Shown in pieces: positions 7,286 through 64,000 of a DNA stretch of 64,000 bases. This DNA comes from a virus (Duplodnaviria; Heunggongvirae; Uroviricota; Caudoviricetes). The notes below the pieces were generated by a model, which ran no database searches, was not told the origin of the DNA, and saw nothing but the letters and a program-made list of their open reading frames with translations. Position numbers and translations under genes: made by a program. The stretch lies in the IMG/VR virus record IMGVR_UViG_3300012347_000364, positions 89,019 through 153,018 of that record; one strand, 5' to 3'. How positions within the stretch are numbered: position 1 is the first letter of the stretch; each line of letters starts with the position of its first letter.

Positions 7286-7375
7286 GAAATGGGACGTTTT
7301 CGCTTTTGTGCTGCGGTGGCTATTAAGGCGCAGATGCCGTCCATCCCCAGTTTGACTGTTCGAACTCATGTGTGA

Positions 7376-7404
7376 ATTATCCCTCTTTTTGAACAAAACG
7401 TCAA
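7376..7404 (-). promoter_or_regulatory. sigma70-type promoter facing the 7257 promoter
   Basis: Minus strand TTGACG, 17 bp, GATAAT; preceded by the same CTCTAG element as the two neighbouring promoters. Confidence 0.65.
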
Positions 7405-7418
7405 CTAGAGGGATAGTG

Positions 7419-7634
7419 TTAGAAAGTCTTTGTATAGAATACTTCTGTTGGATTGCTTTGCACAGTATTGTAATATACTTCTACTTTACAGGTCTTTCCA
7501 CAGCCAAATGGATTGATTCCAAATTTGAATGCGTTTTTGTATGTTTTATAGCCACTGATGATGCATCGGTTGTTCATTCCTACCGAATCATAGCTACCGT
7601 CGTTGTTCTGCTTGGTCACGATATACTTACGCAT
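7419..7634 (-). CDS. hypothetical early protein
   Basis: Last ORF of a three-gene minus-strand operon. Confidence 0.6.
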   Translation of the reverse strand: MRKYIVTKQNNDGSYDSVGMNNRCIISGYKTYKNAFKFGINPFGCGKTCKVEVYYNTVQSNPTEVFYTKTF

Positions 7635-54714: not shown

Positions 54715-56085
54715 ATGGCAAATTTACAAGACTTCCGCGTTAAACGCGGTTTAATCGTTGCTAATAATACAACGCTCTCAGGCAACGCGAGCGTATCAGG
54801 TAACTTAGCAGTCGTTGGTATTACGACACATACTGGCAACACAACGTTTAATGGAGCCGTCACGGTAGCGAACACAGCTGCGTTTGTGGGCGGCAACGTT
54901 GTATTCAATTCTAACACACTCGTCGTAGATGCCACCAATAGCCGTGTTGCAGTGAATGCTGCGTCAAGCACTGTGGCGTTCTATGTTCAAGGTGCTGCTA
55001 ACGTATCTACTACGTTTACGACAGCTAACTTAGTCGCGAATAACATTTCAACTACCACCGCAGCAGTTAATACATTAACGGTCTCTGGATCAACCAACTC
55101 ATCGATTGGTACATCGACGTTCTTCGTTAATCCTTCACTGAACCGTGTAGGTATCAATACCGCTGCGCCAGATGCGTCGCTTGCTGTTTCAGGAACTGCT
55201 AACGTATCTGGCGCAGCATCATTCGGTAATACATCAGCTTTCGTTGGCGCAGCCACTTTCAGCAATACAATTGCTGTTACTGGTGCTACGACGTTGAGCA
55301 GTACTGTTTCTGTTGCTGGTGATGTTACTATCATCAGCGGTAACGTAGCTCTAAGCAACACATCTAAGTACTTTGTTGGTAGTATTACAGGTACGTCCAA
55401 TACAACGATGCGTACAGTAAACCCTGGCTCATATTTGTCGGGCGGTGGGCAATTGACGTCAGATATTACGTTGAACGTAAATGCGACGCCTAGTAACGTA
55501 GGTTCAACTATAGTAGCACGCAATGCTTCAGGCGATTTTACTGCTGGCACAATCTCCGCGACATTGTCTGGAACTGCAACATACGGCACATATTCATCAT
55601 ACTTGTTATATGGCGGTTCATATCGCAGTGCTACAGAAGCAAATACAGCTTCAACTATCATGGCACGTGATACTAACGGCGATACGAATGCACGTTACTT
55701 CCGTGGTACTGCCACGTCAGCGCTGTATGCTGACTTAGCTGAATTGTATTTGGCTGATGAAGATTATCCTGTAGGTACGGTAGTAACTATTGGCGGCGAG
55801 AAGGAAATCACTGCATACTCAAGCGAAGTATCGATAAGAGCATTGGGCACAATTTCGGAGAATCCTGCATACTTGATGAATAGTGGGCTAGAAGGTGGTC
55901 TCCCTGTAGCATTGAAGGGCCGAGTACCAGTACGCGTCCTTGGCACTGTTAGGAAGAATCAAGGGTTAGGTCCAAGCGCCGTTCCTGGTGTTGCTACGAT
56001 GGCTAGCCACAATTACTTCGCAATTGCTTTGCAGGATTATGACAACTTTGGTGAAGAAGGCATCATCGAGGCTGTGATTCTATGA
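54715..56085 (+). CDS. tail fibre protein with putative C-terminal autocleaving chaperone domain
   Basis: FRVKRGL start; RVGINT repeats; C-terminal ALYADLAELY...GTVV.IGG.KE...ALKGRVPVRV. Confidence 0.7.
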   Translation: MANLQDFRVKRGLIVANNTTLSGNASVSGNLAVVGITTHTGNTTFNGAVTVANTAAFVGGNVVFNSNTLVVDATNSRVAVNAASSTVAFYVQGAANVSTTFTTANLVANNISTTTAAVNTLTVSGSTNSSIGTSTFFVNPSLNRVGINTAAPDASLAVSGTANVSGAASFGNTSAFVGAATFSNTIAVTGATTLSSTVSVAGDVTIISGNVALSNTSKYFVGSITGTSNTTMRTVNPGSYLSGGGQLTSDITLNVNATPSNVGSTIVARNASGDFTAGTISATLSGTATYGTYSSYLLYGGSYRSATEANTASTIMARDTNGDTNARYFRGTATSALYADLAELYLADEDYPVGTVVTIGGEKEITAYSSEVSIRALGTISENPAYLMNSGLEGGLPVALKGRVPVRVLGTVRKNQGLGPSAVPGVATMASHNYFAIALQDYDNFGEEGIIEAVIL

Positions 56086-56894
56086 CGCTAGCCGAATACG
56101 CAAAGACCCATGAGGAGTTGGCGAATGTGGGATTCGTTCAACACGACATGCCAACCGCACCAAAAATTGTAGGATTGTTTGGTGGGTTTTCTTTGCGTGA
56201 TGTTCAACCACTGAACGCCCACAACGAGAGTTTAAAGCGTGATTTTGGACCACCTCCGGAGGATCTCGGTCTAACTACGCGTGATGAGATTGAGCAGTGG
56301 TATGCAGAACAAATTCCCTCGCTAGCACCAAATAAAAAGAAGACGTTGACGCAAGGATTCAATCAGCAGGGTGTATGTTACTTAGACCCTTGCTGGCCAA
56401 TAATTTTAGCCGATTATATGTCTACCCTGAGTGTGGAAGAGTGTGCCGCTCTTGAGACACAGTATGAATATATCGGTCTAAATGTTGCCGAATACATTGA
56501 AGCTGTAAATGCAGAGCATCGTGGTGGTTCATATCCGGAGCATATGAGCATACCCACCTTACAACAACGTAAGTATTTTATCAATGATGTTATAGTAGAC
56601 CAGCTACTAAAGCCTTTGTTTGTTGATGGGAAGTATTCAATCCAACAAAAAGCAATTGTAATGGTACTGCCTTTCGGTTCTTCAGAATTTGCGCAGGATT
56701 GTGATAACTTGGTGTATATGAAAGAATCGGCTGAGGTTGTTGCAGACTTCATGCAATATCTTGATGAAGATATGAAGCTTATTGTTAGCGATCACGAGGC
56801 TACATACGTTATACAAAAGCATGTTGCTATCGACATAAATAATATGACAGACGCTCAGATTATCAACAACATCATCTACAACACGAGTATATAA
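56082..56894 (+). CDS. hypothetical protein
   Basis: ORF coupled to the fibre gene; no motif recognised. Confidence 0.7.
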   Translation: MTLAEYAKTHEELANVGFVQHDMPTAPKIVGLFGGFSLRDVQPLNAHNESLKRDFGPPPEDLGLTTRDEIEQWYAEQIPSLAPNKKKTLTQGFNQQGVCYLDPCWPIILADYMSTLSVEECAALETQYEYIGLNVAEYIEAVNAEHRGGSYPEHMSIPTLQQRKYFINDVIVDQLLKPLFVDGKYSIQQKAIVMVLPFGSSEFAQDCDNLVYMKESAEVVADFMQYLDEDMKLIVSDHEATYVIQKHVAIDINNMTDAQIINNIIYNTSI

Positions 56895-57289
56895 TGGCTC
56901 AAACAGAACGTACGCCAAAAAATATCTACGGAACTGCTGACATCAACACGATTAACGCGTTGAAGGCCTCTATAACTGCAAACACCGTGGTGTATGCGAG
57001 TCAGATAAATTCGCTGATTGGTCTGTACAACACAATGAACACGCACTACCATAGATATGATGATGCGTACCAACTTGCAACATATGGTGCTGGATATGGC
57101 CAGTGGCCAGGTGCTGGCGATCGAACAGACTATTATGTGGATAAAGATACATCATACCCAGTAAGCGGGGCTAGTATTAGTACTGTGGCAGCGGGTAGCG
57201 TTGCTACTGCAAGCAAACACAACGAAATTGCTGGACAATCACGTACAATGAAGGTCCATTATCACACGATAGACGACAGAACAGCTTAA
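56894..57289 (+). CDS. small putative virion/fibre protein with two HxH-xx-DD repeats
   Basis: THYHRYDD and VHYHTIDD; CATAAATA at 56834. Confidence 0.6.
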   Translation: MAQTERTPKNIYGTADINTINALKASITANTVVYASQINSLIGLYNTMNTHYHRYDDAYQLATYGAGYGQWPGAGDRTDYYVDKDTSYPVSGASISTVAAGSVATASKHNEIAGQSRTMKVHYHTIDDRTA

Positions 57290-57305
57290 CAGGCCCCAAT
57301 ATATT

Positions 57306-58538
57306 ATGAAACCCTTGAACAAAAGATACGTCATAACAGGGATGGGGGTCGTAAATGCCCTTGGCAGCGGAGTAGACAACACTTTCAGCCGACTCCTCGA
57401 TACATCCAACGAAACGCCACGGATTGCCAAATGGGATTCAGTTAATCAGCCTGCAATTCTCGTTAACCGTGCACACGAACTCCCGGATTTAGACCTTATA
57501 GCAAATGGGGCATATGAGCCTCGCGAGGCTCGTTCATGGCCTCTACTAACTAAGGCTGCTGCCATTGCTGTATACGAGGCTGTGCAGCAATCTGGATTTG
57601 AAACATCCAATGTAGCTACGCTGATATCGAGTATTGGTGGTGGCAACGATATGCGTGATACAGTTGAGCGATCATATCACGCTGGTAAGACGAAAGCAAA
57701 TCCGTTCCAAACCTTAGGAATATCCTACGACTATACTGCAGGAGCAATTGCGTCTAAGTATCGATGGAATGGTCCAAGTACGGTGATGGTATCGGCCTGC
57801 GCTAGCGGTCTATACACCCTCGACTATGCAATTAAGTGTATCGATGCTGGCGATTGTGATGTGGCAGTCGTAGGTGGTACAGATGCGATGGCTGATCACT
57901 ACAATCTCTATTTTTTCCAAGTACTGCACGCTCTTTCAAAGAGAGACGAACCCCATATCAGCCAACCATTCAGCACTGAGCGAGATGGTTTTGTAATGGG
58001 TGAGGGTGCTGGGATTGTTGTTGTCGAAACTCTAGAACATGCGTTGAATAGAAACGCAAACATATTGGCTGAAGTTTGTGGGATGGGATTCTATACTGAA
58101 ACGGAGCATCCGACAACTCCTAGTGAAGGCGGCATTGGCGCTATAGCTAGCGCCACTACAGCTGTGAAGAGGGCTGGGATAGAATTCAACCAAATAGATT
58201 TCATTAACGCTCACGCCACATCAACACCAATAGGCGATGCAATCGAATACAATGCAATGAATACGTTGTTTCCTAACTCAATCATAACCTCAGCAAAAGG
58301 CCACATCGGACACACCATGAGTGCTGGTGGGATCATTGAGATGATCTACGGCATTAAATCAATGCAGACGGAAACTATTTTCCCGGTCGCTAATTTTACG
58401 AGTTGCGATTTCGTTAAAGAATTACATATCAATAAACAACCACTAAATAAAAGCTCGAAGTATTTTTTGAAAAATTCTTATGGGTTTGGTGGCAAGTGTG
58501 CAAGTGTTGTAATTGGTAAGTGTAATATAGAAGAATAA
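57306..58538 (+). CDS. fabF: beta-ketoacyl-ACP synthase II
   Basis: Catalytic Cys in SACASG; His in NAHATSTPIGD and KGHIGH; KNSYGFGG. Confidence 0.93.
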   Translation: MKPLNKRYVITGMGVVNALGSGVDNTFSRLLDTSNETPRIAKWDSVNQPAILVNRAHELPDLDLIANGAYEPREARSWPLLTKAAAIAVYEAVQQSGFETSNVATLISSIGGGNDMRDTVERSYHAGKTKANPFQTLGISYDYTAGAIASKYRWNGPSTVMVSACASGLYTLDYAIKCIDAGDCDVAVVGGTDAMADHYNLYFFQVLHALSKRDEPHISQPFSTERDGFVMGEGAGIVVVETLEHALNRNANILAEVCGMGFYTETEHPTTPSEGGIGAIASATTAVKRAGIEFNQIDFINAHATSTPIGDAIEYNAMNTLFPNSIITSAKGHIGHTMSAGGIIEMIYGIKSMQTETIFPVANFTSCDFVKELHINKQPLNKSSKYFLKNSYGFGGKCASVVIGKCNIEE

Positions 58539-58539
58539 T

Positions 58540-59328
58540 ATGCAAAATGCGATAACGTTTGAACCAACGAGTAGAAACATACAACTAATTCAATTGGTGT
58601 GCTTTAGCGCAGTATTGTATTGTGTCATTGTTCCGTCTGATTGGTTTTGGTATGTGGTATCCATCGCTGTATACGCGATCAATGTGTTGATTGGTCTTAG
58701 TTTCACTATGCATAGGCTACACAGCCATAAGTGTTTCAATACATTCCCTGCATTTGAAAAGTTGTTATCCATCCACGCATGTATGTCAATGGTAGGAAGC
58801 CCATTATCATATTCTTACATCCATCGCTTCCATCACGCCAATAGCGACAACAACGTAGATCCGCATAGCCCTAAAGATGGCGTGATGCATTCTATATTTG
58901 GTCTCCACCAACCTTATAAATTGCAGGCTTTTATCATTAGAGATTTTCTCAAAAGCAAATTTCAAATGTTTGTCCACAAATACTACTTGTTGATTGTTGT
59001 TGCAATTTGCGGACTGGTTGCTTCTTTTAGCCTTCATGCATTGGTGTTTGGAATATTGGTGCCAGGATTCTTTACAGCACTTGCTAGTAGATTAAACAAC
59101 TGGATTACCCACGAGCCTAGATTTGGTATCCAGGATAACGATACTGGAGACAACTCAAGAAACGTTTGGTGGTGGAATGCTATACTAGTTTGGTCAGGTG
59201 AGGGATGGGCAAATAATCACCATCACCGATCGGGGGATTATGATTTTGGAAAACCACAAAGTCGCATAGATATTACTGCCCGGTTAATTGAATTGATGGC
59301 AACGATCAGAATGATAAAGGTAAAATAA
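58540..59328 (+). CDS. membrane fatty acid desaturase (delta-9 type)
   Basis: His boxes HRLHSH and HRFHH, DPHSP, GEGWANNHH; TM segments. Confidence 0.88.
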   Translation: MQNAITFEPTSRNIQLIQLVCFSAVLYCVIVPSDWFWYVVSIAVYAINVLIGLSFTMHRLHSHKCFNTFPAFEKLLSIHACMSMVGSPLSYSYIHRFHHANSDNNVDPHSPKDGVMHSIFGLHQPYKLQAFIIRDFLKSKFQMFVHKYYLLIVVAICGLVASFSLHALVFGILVPGFFTALASRLNNWITHEPRFGIQDNDTGDNSRNVWWWNAILVWSGEGWANNHHHRSGDYDFGKPQSRIDITARLIELMATIRMIKVK

Positions 59329-59654
59329 TGTTCTCTAGAGAAAACCCATCTGAAAACAGAAGTGGCGACTTATCGCAAATAAAATATACATGGACTAGGA
59401 AGACTGCTGAGCATAGCGTAATGGTAGCGACGTGTCCAAAGATTAACGATGCGGGTAAGGTGGTTGGCCAGTTTGCTGCATATAAAGAAGCTCACGATCT
59501 GCATTGTGATCCAGAGCAGTTTGCTGCAGATAATAATTGGACAAAAGACCTTCGATATGAAATTGCAGACCAGATCAACAATCCAGTGTTTGGTCATTTC
59601 GATTTAGAAACATACGTATCGATCCACAACACCTCGATAAGGACAAGAGCATGA
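59328..59654 (+). CDS. hypothetical protein
   Basis: Translationally coupled within the cluster. Confidence 0.65.
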   Translation: MFSRENPSENRSGDLSQIKYTWTRKTAEHSVMVATCPKINDAGKVVGQFAAYKEAHDLHCDPEQFAADNNWTKDLRYEIADQINNPVFGHFDLETYVSIHNTSIRTRA

Positions 59655-60478
59655 GTCGTCATATGATGCGCAACATTGTCGAACGTATGGATATACGATT
59701 CGACCCTGTACAAGTAGAAGAAGAATGGGAAGCAATTAAGCATAATATGTCTCGTGCAGGGATGATGAATGCTGCTCTCCCAAAAGAGGGAATCGACCGT
59801 CTTGATTATTTCTACATCGAAAATCCAAGAATCGATCCAGTGATCGAGGGGACCATTTTCGAGAAGTTTATTAAGGCTCTCCCAATTAAGGTTAGCAGAG
59901 CGACTTTTCTTAATTTAATTCCTAACCAATGTCTACGTTGGCATAGAGATCCAGACAACAAAATCCACCTACCGATTAACGATAAGCCTGGTTCTTTCTT
60001 TTACGATTTTGAAGAACAAGAAGCATATCCAATCAAGGCGGACGGGCACGCTTACAGATATTTTACTTCAGCAAGATATCACAGCGCGTTCAACGCAAGT
60101 TGTTTTAACAGAACGCATTTAGTTGCTGCTGAATATCACTGTCGCAATTCAGAACCATCTAAGGTGTGGGGACAAGAACTGACAGTTCGTATTCCGGATG
60201 AGGTTTCTTATCCACCTAAAATATCACGGAACGACTCGATCGAGCAAGCCTTCTTTGTTGAGTGGGTTGCAAGAACAATTCATGATGGGTGGCTGTTTAG
60301 CGGATCAGCAAAGGATACAAACGGAGAAGGATGTACATATAGAACGTATAACTTTGAGTTTATTGATCCTGATAAAATGAAGCAATCGTTCAACGGTGAG
60401 TTTGATATGCTGCAAGTTGCTCTCGCACAGCACAACATTGAAGTTAAGTTAGGTGACGTTTGTGAACGGGTATGTTGA
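59651..60478 (+). CDS. Asp/Asn hydroxylase-like 2OG-Fe(II) oxygenase with C-terminal extension
   Basis: LRWHRD (HxD)...KIHLPI...YHSAFN...RTHLV. Confidence 0.75.
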   Translation: MSRHMMRNIVERMDIRFDPVQVEEEWEAIKHNMSRAGMMNAALPKEGIDRLDYFYIENPRIDPVIEGTIFEKFIKALPIKVSRATFLNLIPNQCLRWHRDPDNKIHLPINDKPGSFFYDFEEQEAYPIKADGHAYRYFTSARYHSAFNASCFNRTHLVAAEYHCRNSEPSKVWGQELTVRIPDEVSYPPKISRNDSIEQAFFVEWVARTIHDGWLFSGSAKDTNGEGCTYRTYNFEFIDPDKMKQSFNGEFDMLQVALAQHNIEVKLGDVCERVC

Positions 60479-60827
60479 ATTTCCCGTATCGATAACGCAA
60501 GATGAAATTGATGTCTTTTGTTCAATGACGAAAGACAAAAATCCTCAACATAAGAGTGATGTAGAGCGAGTAGTGGCGCCTGGGATGCTTCTGTGTGCTA
60601 AAGCTCTAGGAGAAACGGATAATCAATTTCACATAGTGTGGTTGATAGAGCAACAGATAAGATTCAGCAAACAGGTATATATTGATGAACCTATAATTGT
60701 ACGACATACGTTAATCAGACAAAAACAAATACGATCTGGATTGTTACAGGAGATACAAATCGACGTCAAAGTAAATGATGAGATTAGATACTCTGGTAAA
60801 ATGAAAATATTAAAGACACTAAAATGA
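60453..60827 (+). CDS. MaoC/PhaJ-like hot-dog dehydratase
   Basis: F..MTKDKNPQH...VVAPGML...QQIRFSKQVYIDE. Confidence 0.8.
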   Translation: MTFVNGYVEFPVSITQDEIDVFCSMTKDKNPQHKSDVERVVAPGMLLCAKALGETDNQFHIVWLIEQQIRFSKQVYIDEPIIVRHTLIRQKQIRSGLLQEIQIDVKVNDEIRYSGKMKILKTLK

Positions 60828-61858
60828 AAAAGACGGTATTCATTCAAAATATCCCTCACTATCCTACTGCATGGGGTGATGCAGTTGCGTCATGGAACCT
60901 GGCCAGCTTCTTTAAAGGGATGGGCACTTGGTATGCAAAGGATTATCAGCAACAGTTAAAGTTCTGGTCAAAGCAGAGCTTCAATATCATCTTAGATTCC
61001 GATCGTGATGATGCTTCGAAGTTAGTGCTACGTCACTATATGATTCCTAAGGTGCCAGGTGGTGCTGATCTTCGTAAGAGCATTGATCTAAGAGAAGCAT
61101 TTAAATATCTGGATGAAAATCCCGGTCGGCGTACAGTCGCTTTTGGTGTATTCTTCGACCCCAAACAAAGTAATTTTTCTACTGAGTATGTGATTAACGA
61201 ATCGAAGTGGTTTACGCGCGAGCCACACGATCTACAGGTAGATGATGAATCGCTTGCTGATCATTACACTCATAATAAGTTTATCCGTTTAGGCGAAACA
61301 GAACCAATCACTAACGAGAGTAATATTGGTACAATTGTGTGGTTCTTCTTATACAGAGCAATCGATCTACCATTATACTACATAATTCCTAACCCCGATA
61401 TGTTGGGTGTTGCTATTAATTTTAACGATATTATATCTGACGATATTAGGTACATGGTCACTGAGCCACATTTTGGCACAGTTGGCGATTTGATCTTTAG
61501 GCCTAAGTATAGCCGAAACGTTGTGCAAATGACACCCGATAAAATAGCAGCCGGCGAGAACTTCCATATCGACCCGTTTAGGGGCGGTGTGTTTGAGTGG
61601 GGATTCAAAGAACAAGTGCCTAAGGTTCCTATTAAGGTGTATTCGAATTTAGAATATATCCGCGACGAAACGACCAACAGGATATATTTTAAGTTCAATG
61701 AAGGTCAGCAGCATGGATATGTGAATATGCGTTGGAATAGCAATGCATTAATGGATTTTAGTCAGAGTAGTCACTCTTTCGATAACCTACAAAACAAGTG
61801 CACGCTCACGCTTGATGTATATCGAAACGATCGATATAAATATCAAGAGGAGAAGTAA
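60824..61858 (+). CDS. hypothetical protein
   Basis: Coupled ORF within the cluster; no motif recognised. Confidence 0.7.
   Translation: MKKTVFIQNIPHYPTAWGDAVASWNLASFFKGMGTWYAKDYQQQLKFWSKQSFNIILDSDRDDASKLVLRHYMIPKVPGGADLRKSIDLREAFKYLDENPGRRTVAFGVFFDPKQSNFSTEYVINESKWFTREPHDLQVDDESLADHYTHNKFIRLGETEPITNESNIGTIVWFFLYRAIDLPLYYIIPNPDMLGVAINFNDIISDDIRYMVTEPHFGTVGDLIFRPKYSRNVVQMTPDKIAAGENFHIDPFRGGVFEWGFKEQVPKVPIKVYSNLEYIRDETTNRIYFKFNEGQQHGYVNMRWNSNALMDFSQSSHSFDNLQNKCTLTLDVYRNDRYKYQEEK
61835..61852 (+). promoter_or_regulatory. T4-type late promoter and SD for the Cys-rich peptide
   Basis: TATAAATA 61835-61842; GAGGAG 61847-61852; ATG 61859. Confidence 0.7.
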
Positions 61859-62065
61859 ATGGCAGTAGAAAACACCAGTAATGTTAGCATAACTTCCACA
61901 GCCGCTAGTGATAAGGCGGTTGGGGCATCTATTAGTGCGGACACATTCCAACAAATGCTCAACGTGTTGTCTGATTTAGTATCTCACAACCACACTTTTT
62001 ATGATGATTATACGACAGTGTGCGAATGCCAATGTCAATGTGACTGTAGTCGTGGGACCTTATGA
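61859..62065 (+). CDS. 68-aa Cys-rich putative radical SAM substrate (precursor peptide or small virion protein)
   Basis: ...SHNHTFYDDYTTVCECQCQCDCSRGTL; stop overlaps the rSAM start. Confidence 0.75.
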   Translation: MAVENTSNVSITSTAASDKAVGASISADTFQQMLNVLSDLVSHNHTFYDDYTTVCECQCQCDCSRGTL

Positions 62066-63795
62066 ATGAACAAAAAATTGTTTGGGTAAAAACTGAAGCA
62101 CAAAAGAAAAGGTTTAGAGACCATAAGGCATCGGTGTCTGAACTTCATGATGGTACTTTGGAATTTAGAAGCGAGAGCATAATCACGCCTAAAGGGTTAG
62201 AAAAGACTAACAAGCTAATCCACGTCGTACCAAAAGACGATGAACAAATAGTCCCACTTTCAAACGCTTCGTATTTGTTTCAAGAACTGAAGCAAATGAA
62301 CCTCATACTAACAAATGCATGTAACTTAGCGTGCACGTATTGCTATGAGCAGCACAATAAGGATTTCGGTAGATTCACTAACGACAGTTTGTTGAAGGCA
62401 TATCGTTTCTTAGTTGGAGCGAATGATCGCCAACGTAAAGTGTTCAACTTCTTTGGCGGTGAGCCGCTGATCCATAAAGACATTATTCTTGACTTTTTGA
62501 GAAACAATGAAGCAGAATTACAACACAACGCACGTGGCGATATTAACACCATCGTTGGTATCGTAACTAACGGTTTGTTGTTTAGCAAAGAGTTGCTCGA
62601 TGAGTACTTGTCGTACGACTTTACATTCATATTAATCTCACTTGACACGAATAGAAGTGAGGTTGACCACCGTGAAATAGGTCAACCAAAGATTGATAAG
62701 CTGTTGGAATACATCAGCTATATTCCCGAAGACGTTAAGCTACAAAAACGTATTACTATACGTTGCACATTAGCGCGCGAAAACGCTCCATACTTCATTG
62801 AGTTCGCTGAAGACTTATATTCGCGTGGTATTAGACGAATGGTTGTTCATCCGCTTATACTAGATTCTAGTAAGGGTTTCATCCAATGGACAACTGCTGA
62901 GTGGGATAAACTTCACAAAGATATCATTAGCATACTAAACAAATACGACGACTTCCAAATCCATTTCTCTGAAGGTGTGGGCCAAAAGGGCGAAGAGAAT
63001 TGCATGATCGGATCTGACATGATTGCAATCGATGCGTCCGGCGACTTCTCGGGATGCTACTTCTTCACAAACCAAAAGGCAAGCTCAACATCGGAAACGA
63101 TTCTCGGCAATCTTTTCCACGGCACGATATATCTCGACCGTTATAAGAGATTCCAAAAAGAATATGCCAAGATGTTTATGGAAGAAGAACAGTGCCAAAC
63201 ATGCGATTATAAGAATGCGTGCTACCAGTGTCCTGCCGGTAACCTAGACACTGGTTCAAGAATGTTCAGACCAGATGATATGTGTCAGAAGATTGTTAAG
63301 CTGTACCTCGATCTCCAAGAGGATATTGCAAAAAAGCAATTTAAGAAGAAGTATGAGAGCGTCGTGTCTGCTGTCGAGACGTCTGGAGAGAATATCAGCT
63401 TTGCAAAAGGCTTGAGTTATTTAATGTTCTTCTTCTATTTCAACTACCACCCTAAGCCAGAAGTGGCTCATGCCGGGATTGAAGGCGTTGGTGATTATCG
63501 TCAAATGCTTGCTCTATTCAAAAAGCTGATCGACAGAGAAGTGGAATTCAAATTCTCGTCTGACAATTTTGTTGAAGAATTGAAGAGCTTGTTGAGTAGC
63601 GATACAATGGAAGTTGATGACTTTTATTACTATGTGGTTAAAAGGGGCAACCTAACCCCAACAGTGAATAAGATTAACTCCACTACACAATATCAAAGAT
63701 CATTCTTCCTTTGCTTACTGCATATGATTTTCTTACAATCTATGCACAAGACATACGAAGGAACTTTTAGTGAACGACTTAATCAGCCCGATTAA
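62062..63795 (+). CDS. radical SAM/SPASM-domain peptide maturase
   Basis: CNLACTYC (CxxxCxxC); FFGGEP; VTNG; SPASM Cys array CMIG..IAIDASGDFSGC...CQTCDYKNACYQCP...C. Confidence 0.93.
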   Translation: MNEQKIVWVKTEAQKKRFRDHKASVSELHDGTLEFRSESIITPKGLEKTNKLIHVVPKDDEQIVPLSNASYLFQELKQMNLILTNACNLACTYCYEQHNKDFGRFTNDSLLKAYRFLVGANDRQRKVFNFFGGEPLIHKDIILDFLRNNEAELQHNARGDINTIVGIVTNGLLFSKELLDEYLSYDFTFILISLDTNRSEVDHREIGQPKIDKLLEYISYIPEDVKLQKRITIRCTLARENAPYFIEFAEDLYSRGIRRMVVHPLILDSSKGFIQWTTAEWDKLHKDIISILNKYDDFQIHFSEGVGQKGEENCMIGSDMIAIDASGDFSGCYFFTNQKASSTSETILGNLFHGTIYLDRYKRFQKEYAKMFMEEEQCQTCDYKNACYQCPAGNLDTGSRMFRPDDMCQKIVKLYLDLQEDIAKKQFKKKYESVVSAVETSGENISFAKGLSYLMFFFYFNYHPKPEVAHAGIEGVGDYRQMLALFKKLIDREVEFKFSSDNFVEELKSLLSSDTMEVDDFYYYVVKRGNLTPTVNKINSTTQYQRSFFLCLLHMIFLQSMHKTYEGTFSERLNQPD

Positions 63796-64000
63796 AATTG
63801 TCAGCAAGACGCCTCTAGCAGGCGTCAAGCTAATAACGATATATCTTGGCAACACTTGTAATTTCGATTGCGTTTATTGCGATCGAGGGTACATAGAGAG
63901 CCTTGGTGGGCAGAATCTTGGAAAGTCAACTTCCGAGGACATGCAACAATTCTTTGAGTGGGTTGATACGCAGCCCAACGAGATTTTACGCGTTGCGTTC
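63770..64000 (+). CDS. second radical SAM enzyme (5' part, runs off the window; not in ORF track)
   Basis: GTG start 63770 behind GAAGGA; ...IYLGNTCNFDCVYCD (CxxxCxxC)...RVAF; frame open to 64000. Confidence 0.85.
   Translation, partial: MNDLISPIKIVSKTPLAGVKLITIYLGNTCNFDCVYCDRGYIESLGGQNLGKSTSEDMQQFFEWVDTQPNEILRVAF

Follow-up and report, generated by a model that had tools for sequence, protein, structure and literature searches.

A run of tightly packed genes that includes a short cysteine-rich peptide and several radical S-adenosylmethionine (rSAM) enzymes lies among the tail-fibre genes of a tailed phage. The source record (IMGVR_UViG_3300012347_000364) is a 222,825 bp virus with direct terminal repeats, and the window is the 64,000-nucleotide stretch at bases 89019-153018 of that record. 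We took the DNA downstream of the window as locus L002 (window position = L002 position + 54981). A previous annotation of the window, made from its letters and referred to here as the original prediction, had listed eleven open reading frames (ORFs) in this run. All eleven were found where it had placed them, on the + strand, as are all other features described below that lie within the window.

The gene run lies between tail-fibre genes. It starts at the end of the gene for a 456-amino-acid (aa) fibre protein (54715..56085; PHROG tail-fibre matches) and extends 4 kb beyond the end of the window. Fibre genes restart 130 nt after its last gene, which encodes a DUF3050 protein. The original prediction had described the cluster as appended to the fibre genes; because the fibres resume so soon after it, the module is embedded within the fibre block. 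Its genes mostly abut or overlap by 1-26 nt, and the largest gap, 16 nt, precedes a gene for a FabF-type enzyme. The C-terminal ~135 aa of the fibre protein (55680-56085, motif ALYADLAELY) form a domain that is 42-55% identical in at least 25 loci; in most related loci it immediately precedes the module. This domain had no Pfam or PDB match and may be an autoproteolytic chaperone or a docking site for the protein bundle described below. The absence of a transporter and a leader peptidase, reported before for the window, held over a wider range: a family-model scan of the cluster and of the 7 kb that follow it found neither transporter nor peptidase families.

The peptide is encoded by a real, conserved gene. 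The ORF (61859..62065) specifies 68 aa that comprise a variable N-terminus, a helix-HxH-DD unit, a CECQCQCDC run and an SRGTL end (...CECQCQCDCSRGTL). In a profile search of 1.84 billion proteins, 79 clusters (50% identity) matched, and for 51 of these E was 1e-10 or lower. Two low-scoring matches, P0077 and P0079, were rejected; they are repeat proteins that have no HxH and no Cys run. The family consensus is a variable N-terminus, a helix, H-x-H-x-F-Y-D-D-Y, three to six Cys spaced by single residues (mostly N, Q, E, D or A), and an x-R-G-x-hydrophobic end. In the peptide alignment (A1), M33, L37, L40, H43, H45, D49, D50, C59, C61, C63, R65 and G66 are invariant. Apart from the peptide, the 222-kb genome has no (C[NQDEA])3+C run in any of its six frames.

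Three homologous HxH units are encoded in the module, a relationship that was not part of the original prediction. One is in the peptide, and the other two are in a neighboring 131-aa protein, HxH131 (56894..57289), which carries the peptide's helix-HxH-acidic unit twice (as helix-HxH-x2-3-D(D)) and in which H51, H53, D57, H122, H124 and D128 are invariant. The AlphaFold2 (AF2) model of HxH131 had a pLDDT of 79 and no fold match in the PDB. HxH131 is the predicted docking partner of the peptide. The predicted complex had an ipSAE of 0.69 (runs of 0.61, 0.72 and 0.69) compared to 0.01 for the best control, the partners had a pLDDT of at least 63, and at least 76% of the contacts were common to the runs. 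The interface was predicted between residues 27-51 of the peptide and residues 14-58 and 104-128 of HxH131, with all six His among the confident interface residues.

Natural fusions join these units in one chain, and we therefore treat the peptide and HxH131 as one three-unit body. P0017 has three units and the Cys tail; P0008, P0030, P0040 and P0053 have two units and the Cys tail; and P0056 has three units without Cys. In the one-unit fusions, a linker is followed by a domain of 130-180 aa, with or without a Cys run: P0037 has one unit, a Cys run, a poly-Pro linker and a 180-aa domain, and P0075 has one unit and a C-terminal domain and no Cys. The Cys-tailed P0017 adjoins genes similar to two of the rSAM enzymes described below (rSAM577 and rSAM371), P0037 adjoins only a gene similar to a third (rSAM436), and the Cys-free P0075 has no rSAM gene within 8 kb. 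In trimeric fibres and spikes, HxH motifs on the axis are established sites for Fe or Zn (PMC6116203; bioRxiv 10.1101/2023.02.25.529910; PMC11705849). In the phage described here, the models suggest that the three-fold set of HxH motifs would come from two chains, and by analogy the bundle would bind metal.

Four rSAM-type enzymes and an oxidase are encoded downstream of the peptide. The original prediction had named two radical SAM enzymes, and both calls were confirmed: rSAM577 (62062..63795; PF04055, E 1.7e-16) and rSAM371 (371 aa; PF04055, E 8.7e-12). The latter occupies 63770..64000 in the window and continues to window-equivalent 64885 (L002 8789-9904). The downstream sequence provided the rest of rSAM371 and three genes that had not been predicted. 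These encode two further CX3CX2C proteins, unk356 (356 aa; L002 9901-10971) and the rSAM/SPASM protein rSAM436 (436 aa; L002 10968-12278), and the DUF3050 protein (L002 12268-13002). The sequence features of radical SAM/SPASM enzymes are present, that is, CX3CX2C plus a seven-Cys motif including CX2CX5CX2-3C, and PF04055 with PF13186. In rSAM577, C87/C91/C94 and C314, 332, 378, 381, 387, 390 and 408 are invariant (20 sequences), and in rSAM436, C72/76/79 and seven more Cys are 83-94% conserved. In addition to CX3CX2C, rSAM371 has four invariant C-terminal Cys, which by their number are sufficient for one auxiliary cluster. The only motif of this kind in unk356 is an invariant CX3CX2C; the protein had no Pfam match and falls among viral rSAM clusters in the ESM Atlas. 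The DUF3050 protein is found in most modules, but not in all. It matches PF11251 with 245.9 bits (gathering cut-off 22.2) and PDB entry 9vwb with E 5.6e-53, and its family is labeled 'HamA_HO-like' in contig annotations.

The maturases that scored best against rSAM577 were PapB, CXXX-repeat, SCIFF and QhpD-type enzymes. The best NCBIfam match was PapB (NF047865; 113 bits, cut-off 340), followed by the CXXX-repeat family (TIGR04115; 76.5 bits, cut-off 350). The QhpD-type family TIGR03906 matched at E 2.8e-17, and the anaerobic sulfatase-maturing family TIGR03942 gave 48.5 bits (cut-off 349). The N-terminal ~75 aa of rSAM577 are outside all of the family alignments. Judged by these comparisons, rSAM577 is a new family that resembles thioether-forming maturases and is a member of none.

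The core module is conserved across very different phages. Using an rSAM577 search and the peptide alignment, we gathered relatives on about 40 viral contigs. In related loci, the peptide was accompanied by the rSAM enzymes without exception, in agreement with the synteny expected from the original prediction. The recurring order is the fibre C-terminal domain, HxH131, a slot of variable content, unk344, the peptide, rSAM577, rSAM371, unk356 and rSAM436, usually followed by the DUF3050 gene, then a 109-aa protein and then fibres. Wherever a related locus extended 5 kb or more beyond the peptide, all four CX3CX2C genes were present, and the full four-enzyme set was found on about 30 distinct contigs, including phages of 257 kb and 379 kb. 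The setting was always fibre genes, in T4-like, phiKZ-like, Ackermannviridae and sipho-type phages. Among prokaryotes, the peptide pattern was found in a single 2.9-kb contig of a metagenome-assembled genome out of 185,579 species genomes.

Cultured phages carry the module as well. In the phiKZ-like Ralstonia phages RP12 and RP31, the core module is complete and adjoins genes for two YomR-like proteins labeled 'virion structural'. The homologue of the peptide in these phages is an unannotated ORF of 65 aa at L004:12748-12945 (NC_041911 82888-83085), between ORF074 (HxH protein) and ORF075. The latter is the homologue of unk344 (hhalign probability 82%, E 1e-5), a beta-rich protein of the core module (60824..61858) that is present in most loci. 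The AF2 model of unk344 (pLDDT 74) had only weak Ig-like or adhesin-like fold matches in the PDB and the AlphaFold database (AFDB). Ralstonia phage RSP15 and the siphophage Achromobacter JWF carry a one-enzyme form, in which relatives of rSAM436 (29% identical, E 4e-34) adjoin fibre genes. Other proteins beside the rSAM genes of RSP15 and JWF were considered as homologues of unk344 and rejected, as no homology was detectable. In the description of RP12 and RP31, the rSAM genes are listed just as 'other genes' (PMC5468394). A survey of pelagimyophages mentions rSAM cassettes in the host-recognition cluster, without analysis (PMC7029224), and eight rSAM genes were reported in the structural cluster of Aeromonas phage 332-Vera (PMC12390700). 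Our literature searches found no paper describing such a system for a virus particle.

Alternating Cys runs are enriched next to rSAM436-like genes. An alignment scan with rSAM436 gave at least 254 viral contigs, and we counted Cys runs from -5 to +4.5 kb in 56 loci with a recognizable rSAM ORF. The test was redone with stricter patterns because the loose pattern (C.)2C is common in non-coding frames. The pattern (C[NQDEA])2+C was found on the same strand as the rSAM gene in 40 of the 56 loci and on the opposite strand in 3. Runs of four or more Cys were found on the same strand in 26 of the 56 loci and on the opposite strand in none.

Several of the proteins that carry such runs are fibres. 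JWF gp028 (L034:4688-6139), a gp36-like fibre, has the run CNCDCNCNCSC, and Pfam starts a Hint domain (residue 1) at the last Cys of this run; the side fibre of RSP15 (ORF048) ends in NCQCGN. A 225-aa protein directly upstream of an rSAM436-like gene (L140:6133-6810) has a Cys/Asn-rich region that leads to NCNCDCNCDC-FW and then directly into a Peptidase_S74 intramolecular chaperone. Other carriers have Hint domains or gp36-like bodies. Where a carrier fibre self-cleaves, the Cys run would become its mature C-terminus. The mature C-terminus is the distal tip in most fibres. A mature Hint-bearing fibre possibly ends in the Cys run as a thioester intermediate.

Similar arrangements were seen in other loci. 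In tail-fibre proteins of L103 and L147, a Hint (intein-like) self-cleaving domain likewise has the last Cys of the alternating run as its residue 1. Small phage proteins of two large, undescribed families contain or end in long Cys/Asn-rich stretches and adjoin rSAM436-like genes (L099, L097, L116 and many of L094-L156); their N-termini read MAYKVGSTTVID... and MTLPASGxI..SD.N.E.G...

Based on these results, we lean toward the interpretation that the region holds the first two thirds of an rSAM-based, phage-specific module for fibre-tip maturation in the tail-fibre block. The 68-aa peptide would be the third unit of a three-unit bundle and not a free precursor of a ribosomally synthesized and post-translationally modified peptide (RiPP). 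Three helix-HxH-acidic units would gather six His at one interface, like the HxH sites of trimeric fibres and spikes, and a (Cys-X)n-x-Arg-Gly-x-Φ tail would stick out from the bundle. This tail is the putative substrate of the rSAM set (two SPASM enzymes, an enzyme with a single auxiliary cluster, and a minimal enzyme), and the haem-oxygenase-like oxidase (DUF3050/HamA-like) probably also acts on it. N, Q, D and E are the types of acceptor residue used by PapB, NxxcB and QhpD. Because the residues interleaved with the Cys match these types, the likeliest chemistry would be thioether formation (ranthionine-type), in which Cys sulfur is joined to a beta or gamma carbon of an interleaved Asn, Gln, Asp or Glu; both the target residues and the chemistry are proposed by analogy. 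The product would be a rigid, protease-resistant tip that is kept on the virion. The original prediction had favored a virion fibre part over a secreted antibiotic, and the fibre context in unrelated lineages, the fusions, the self-cleaving fibres and the restriction to phages all point in the same direction. Its wider interpretation, an rSAM-modified and possibly lipidated fibre part, is partly supported.

Several findings weigh against this interpretation. All of the NCBIfam rSAM matches are far below their cut-offs, and rSAM577 has no sequence match in the PDB. The original prediction had likened the SPASM enzyme to peptide maturases, and rSAM577 does match these best. rSAM371 and rSAM436 match viperin/MoaA-type cores about as well as peptide maturases (in the PDB, these two had only weak matches to the cores of CteB or viperin). 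The Cys tail of the peptide is outside the predicted interface with HxH131, and its placement is not confident. Of 80 solved complexes, 58 reached the mark that the predicted complex was judged by, as did 2 of 110 mismatched pairs; this calibration is only approximate here because custom alignments were used. Fold searches of the PDB and AFDB with unk344 gave no enzyme fold and no assignable role. The virion location of the module proteins would follow from gene context, the fusions and the fibre carriers, and the published mass spectrometry of RP31 virions lists none of the products of ORF68-76. The neighboring fibre proteins are also missing from that data set, and the absence does not count against the module proteins because the proteomic coverage was too shallow.

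The window also contains a set of genes for enzymes of lipid metabolism, inserted in the module. The slot between HxH131 and unk344 holds this cassette at 57306-60827. The first gene (57306..58538) encodes the FabF-type beta-ketoacyl synthase (KS). The original call is sound: both KS Pfam domains are present (PF00109 and PF02801; E 1.5e-36 and 4e-24 for the N and C domains) and C165, H303, H333 and H336 are invariant. The score against TIGR03150 was 296 bits, below the cut-off of 494. The protein belongs to a phage-specific clade that we recovered from a large protein collection (about 22 clusters, 54-82% identical), and bacterial FabF proteins are 36-42% identical or less. Of the IMG/VR scans with FabF, the one with a single protein found nothing and the one with an alignment found only two contigs that were already known.

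The desaturase call was likewise upheld. The second gene (58540..59328) encodes a 262-aa membrane di-iron enzyme of the fatty-acid-desaturase family (PF00487, 46.5 bits, cut-off 29.7) with the His boxes HRLHSH, HRFHH and HHH (HX4H, HXXHH, HHH). It was found in the source genome and, at the same place and 58% identical, in L074. The third gene (59328..59654) encodes unk108, a 108-aa protein with no family match that is 58-63% identical in all FabF-bearing loci.

Two further enzyme calls were upheld in part. The 275-aa protein at 59651..60478, originally called a 2-oxoglutarate (2OG) hydroxylase, has no Pfam match (PF05118 family). A profile of five orthologues matched the 'Beta-hydroxylase' in PDB entry 7v4f at E 1.2e-9, and H98 and D100 of the H98-x-D100 motif are invariant, as are several distal His. 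The ESM Atlas places it with Asp/Asn beta-hydroxylase clusters (score 0.92, 182 shared features), and we describe it as an Asp/Asn beta-hydroxylase-like protein (cupin, 2OG/Fe). RSP15 ORF046 was considered as a relative of this protein and rejected, as no similarity was detectable. The 124-aa protein at 60453..60827, originally called a MaoC dehydratase, is below the Pfam cut-off (PF01575, 14.9 bits, cut-off 27, E 0.02), and its matches to dehydratases in the PDB are only at E about 0.4. Its D28-x-N30-P-x-H33 is invariant, and D-x-N-P-x-H is what we take to be the hydratase-2 motif of (R)-specific hydratases. We regard the protein as a candidate MaoC-like hot-dog (R)-hydratase/dehydratase.

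It is an even call whether this cassette has anything to do with the fibre module. The alternative is that it is unrelated auxiliary metabolic cargo in a recombination hot spot of the fibre region, where its enzymes, an LpxO/AspH-like hydroxylase among them, would remodel the host membrane or the acyl chains of lipid A (for example, for receptor masking or membrane homeostasis). The cassette is present in only a few of about 35 modules and the contents of the slot vary, indicating that it is optional and that the module works without it. In the tree of rSAM577, the FabF-bearing loci are not one clade, and at least three gains or losses are needed; the FabF-bearing L074 is sister to FabF-free loci with support of 100/100. 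In other phages, the slot contains a 262-aa ferritin-like di-iron protein (L005 8084-8872 and L012 8067-8858; Rubrerythrin 31 bits, with weak similarity to FA_desaturase_2), a class-III aminotransferase on the minus strand (L010 7572-8846; 144 bits), or nothing. There is no match to an acyl carrier protein (ACP; PF00550) in the phage genome, and no acyltransferase or ligase was recognized among the cluster proteins. Also, the pelagimyophage survey gives fabF, desaturase and 2OG oxygenase as extra genes of freshwater phages (PMC7029224).

Other results argue for a link between the cassette and the module. Every FabF copy that we sampled was at this one slot: those of the source phage and L014/L023, and those in three further contexts (56%, 61% and 71% identical), all of which are between HxH131 and unk344. 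The FabF contexts also carry the unk108, hydroxylase-like and MaoC-like genes. The clade was thus found only inside the module, down to 56% identity. In addition, the cassette genes are translationally coupled to the module, and the module recurs with desaturase-type enzymes of three non-homologous kinds. The cassette enzymes would use host ACP. The cassette would either make an acyl group that is linked to a bundle protein or remodel host lipids. Lipidation of the peptide, which was part of the original prediction, is possible but unsupported. We think it quite unlikely that the four rSAM enzymes and the HamA-like oxidase turn the Cys tail of an iron-loaded two-chain HxH bundle into a thioether ladder and that, in lineages with the cassette, an acyl chain made by it is attached to this tail to form a membrane-inserting virion adhesin, a lipidated structural protein with a biosynthetic pathway of its own.

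The FabF-bearing relatives contain other candidate helper proteins. These are an extra 472-aa radical SAM protein, an Fe-S_biosyn (PF01521) protein and 2OG-FeII_Oxy_3 proteins (L076:2245-3663 minus and 7308-7634; L075:20507-21174). A faint PhyH match was also seen right after the DUF3050 gene in FabF-bearing relatives.

We considered whether the Cys residues of the tip might remain thiol ligands. In this model, the HxH bundle and the Cys run would bind metal ions or an Fe-S-type cluster, the rSAM enzymes would either build that cofactor or modify other residues (for example, by aromatic cross-links in F-Y-D-D-Y, or by epimerization), and no thioethers would form. The HxH sites of known fibres bind Fe or Zn (PMC6116203; bioRxiv 10.1101/2023.02.25.529910). 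Alternating Cys would put all of the thiols on one face of a strand, F47, D49, D50 and Y51 of the peptide are conserved as strongly as the Cys, and four different rSAM enzymes and an oxidase exceed what simple thioethers need. However, the wider families associated with rSAM436 share the Cys run only and have neither HxH nor FYDDY, and the interleaved residues are biased to N, Q, D, E and A, the acceptors of beta- and gamma-thioether maturases. Based on these considerations, we think that this model is unlikely.

The module is unlikely to encode a classical RiPP. In that case, the rSAM enzymes would cross-link a leader-plus-core peptide, which would leave the cell at lysis or serve within it as an antibiotic, a signal or an anti-defence molecule, and HxH131 and unk344 would be chaperone or immunity proteins. 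In favor of a RiPP, a short Cys-rich ORF directly precedes a SPASM enzyme whose best family matches are the PapB, CXXX-repeat and SCIFF maturases, and the conserved helical segment ahead of the Cys run could be a leader. Against it, there is no peptidase or exporter in the module or the 7 kb downstream, and some relatives have C-terminal domains of 130-180 aa or three fused units. Homologous Cys runs also lie inside true fibres whose self-cleavage falls exactly at the run. In all four types of phage the module is always surrounded by fibre genes, and the family is almost absent from prokaryote genomes.

The fibre-tip module resembles several known systems and differs from each of them. Like the ranthipeptide and sactipeptide systems (PapB-PapA freyrasin, CteB-CteA SCIFF, NxxcB-NxxcA), it has a seven-Cys SPASM rSAM enzyme beside a short Cys-rich substrate in which Cys is interleaved with Asn, Asp, Glu or Gln. 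It differs in that the spacing is Cys-X rather than CX3 or NxxC, the PapB score of 113 is far below the cut-off of 340, the rSAM-type enzymes number four and are joined by an oxidase, a peptidase and an exporter are lacking, and the system is restricted to phages. The putative substrate also differs; it would be a folded unit of a two-chain bundle that in relatives is part of tail fibres. The CXXX-repeat system (TIGR04115) is similar in combining a Cys-repeat protein with an adjacent SPASM maturase. In the phage, the Cys period is 2 and not 4, the TIGR04115 score is far below the cut-off (76.5 and 350), and the phage adds an HxH docking module, a set of four rSAM enzymes and the FabF cassette.

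In QhpD-QhpC and the anaerobic sulfatase-maturing enzymes, as proposed here, a SPASM enzyme modifies Cys in a protein that stays a structural subunit. The phage locus differs in that it has no dehydrogenase or sulfatase context and its scores are far below the cut-offs. The C/S-x-P/A-x-R motif of the sulfatase-type substrates is not conserved; the tail of the HxH family reads C-x-C-x-R-G, and the Arg of the tail is absent in P0037, JWF gp028, RSP15 ORF048 and most of the rSAM436-associated carriers. The HxH sites of the T4 gp37 needle, R-pyocin fibres and the P2 gpV apex share the tail-fibre context and have three converging HxH units, as predicted for the bundle here. In those, the units come from a homotrimer, whereas the phage units would come from two chains (2 + 1) or one fused chain. 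The fold of HxH131 has no PDB match, and its metal is predicted by analogy. Lipolanthines and goadvionins are lipidated RiPPs made with fatty-acid synthase or polyketide synthase genes. They are like the phage cluster in having fatty-acid enzymes encoded within a peptide-modification cluster, and differ in that the phage cassette is optional, with no recognized acyltransferase, ACP or ligase. The module misses the curated cut-offs of every rSAM maturase family that we scored. What is new here is the two-chain, three-unit HxH bundle with its fusions, the set of four rSAM enzymes with a HamA-like protein, and the nested, phage-specific FabF cassette.

Tail fibres determine which bacteria a phage infects, and to our knowledge their maturation is thought to be limited to folding, chaperones and self-cleavage. 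If our interpretation is correct, then a dedicated rSAM pathway acting on the fibre tip would be a new layer of virion biochemistry, and the many 'orphan' rSAM genes of phages would be read as genes for structural maturases and not for antibiotic or metabolic enzymes. Folded proteins with (Cys-X)n tails would also be a new class of substrate for RiPP-type enzymology. If the FabF clade is linked to a fibre protein, this would be the first virus that makes a lipid for a protein of its own particle; if it is not, the genes would be a new cassette for remodeling host lipids.

The 270-aa protein encoded between the fibre gene and HxH131 (56082..56894) is specific to the source phage; it had no Pfam or PHROG match and no homologue in any related locus. 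The motif TATAAATA, which resembles a T4 late promoter, is at 61835..61842, 24 nt upstream of the start codon of the peptide. It is kept only in FabF-bearing loci (4 of 38), and the regional count of the motif is not above chance. A second copy of the late-promoter-like motif is at L002 13097-13104 (window-equivalent 68078-68085), 28 nt upstream of the gene for the 109-aa protein that is located between the module and the next fibre genes.

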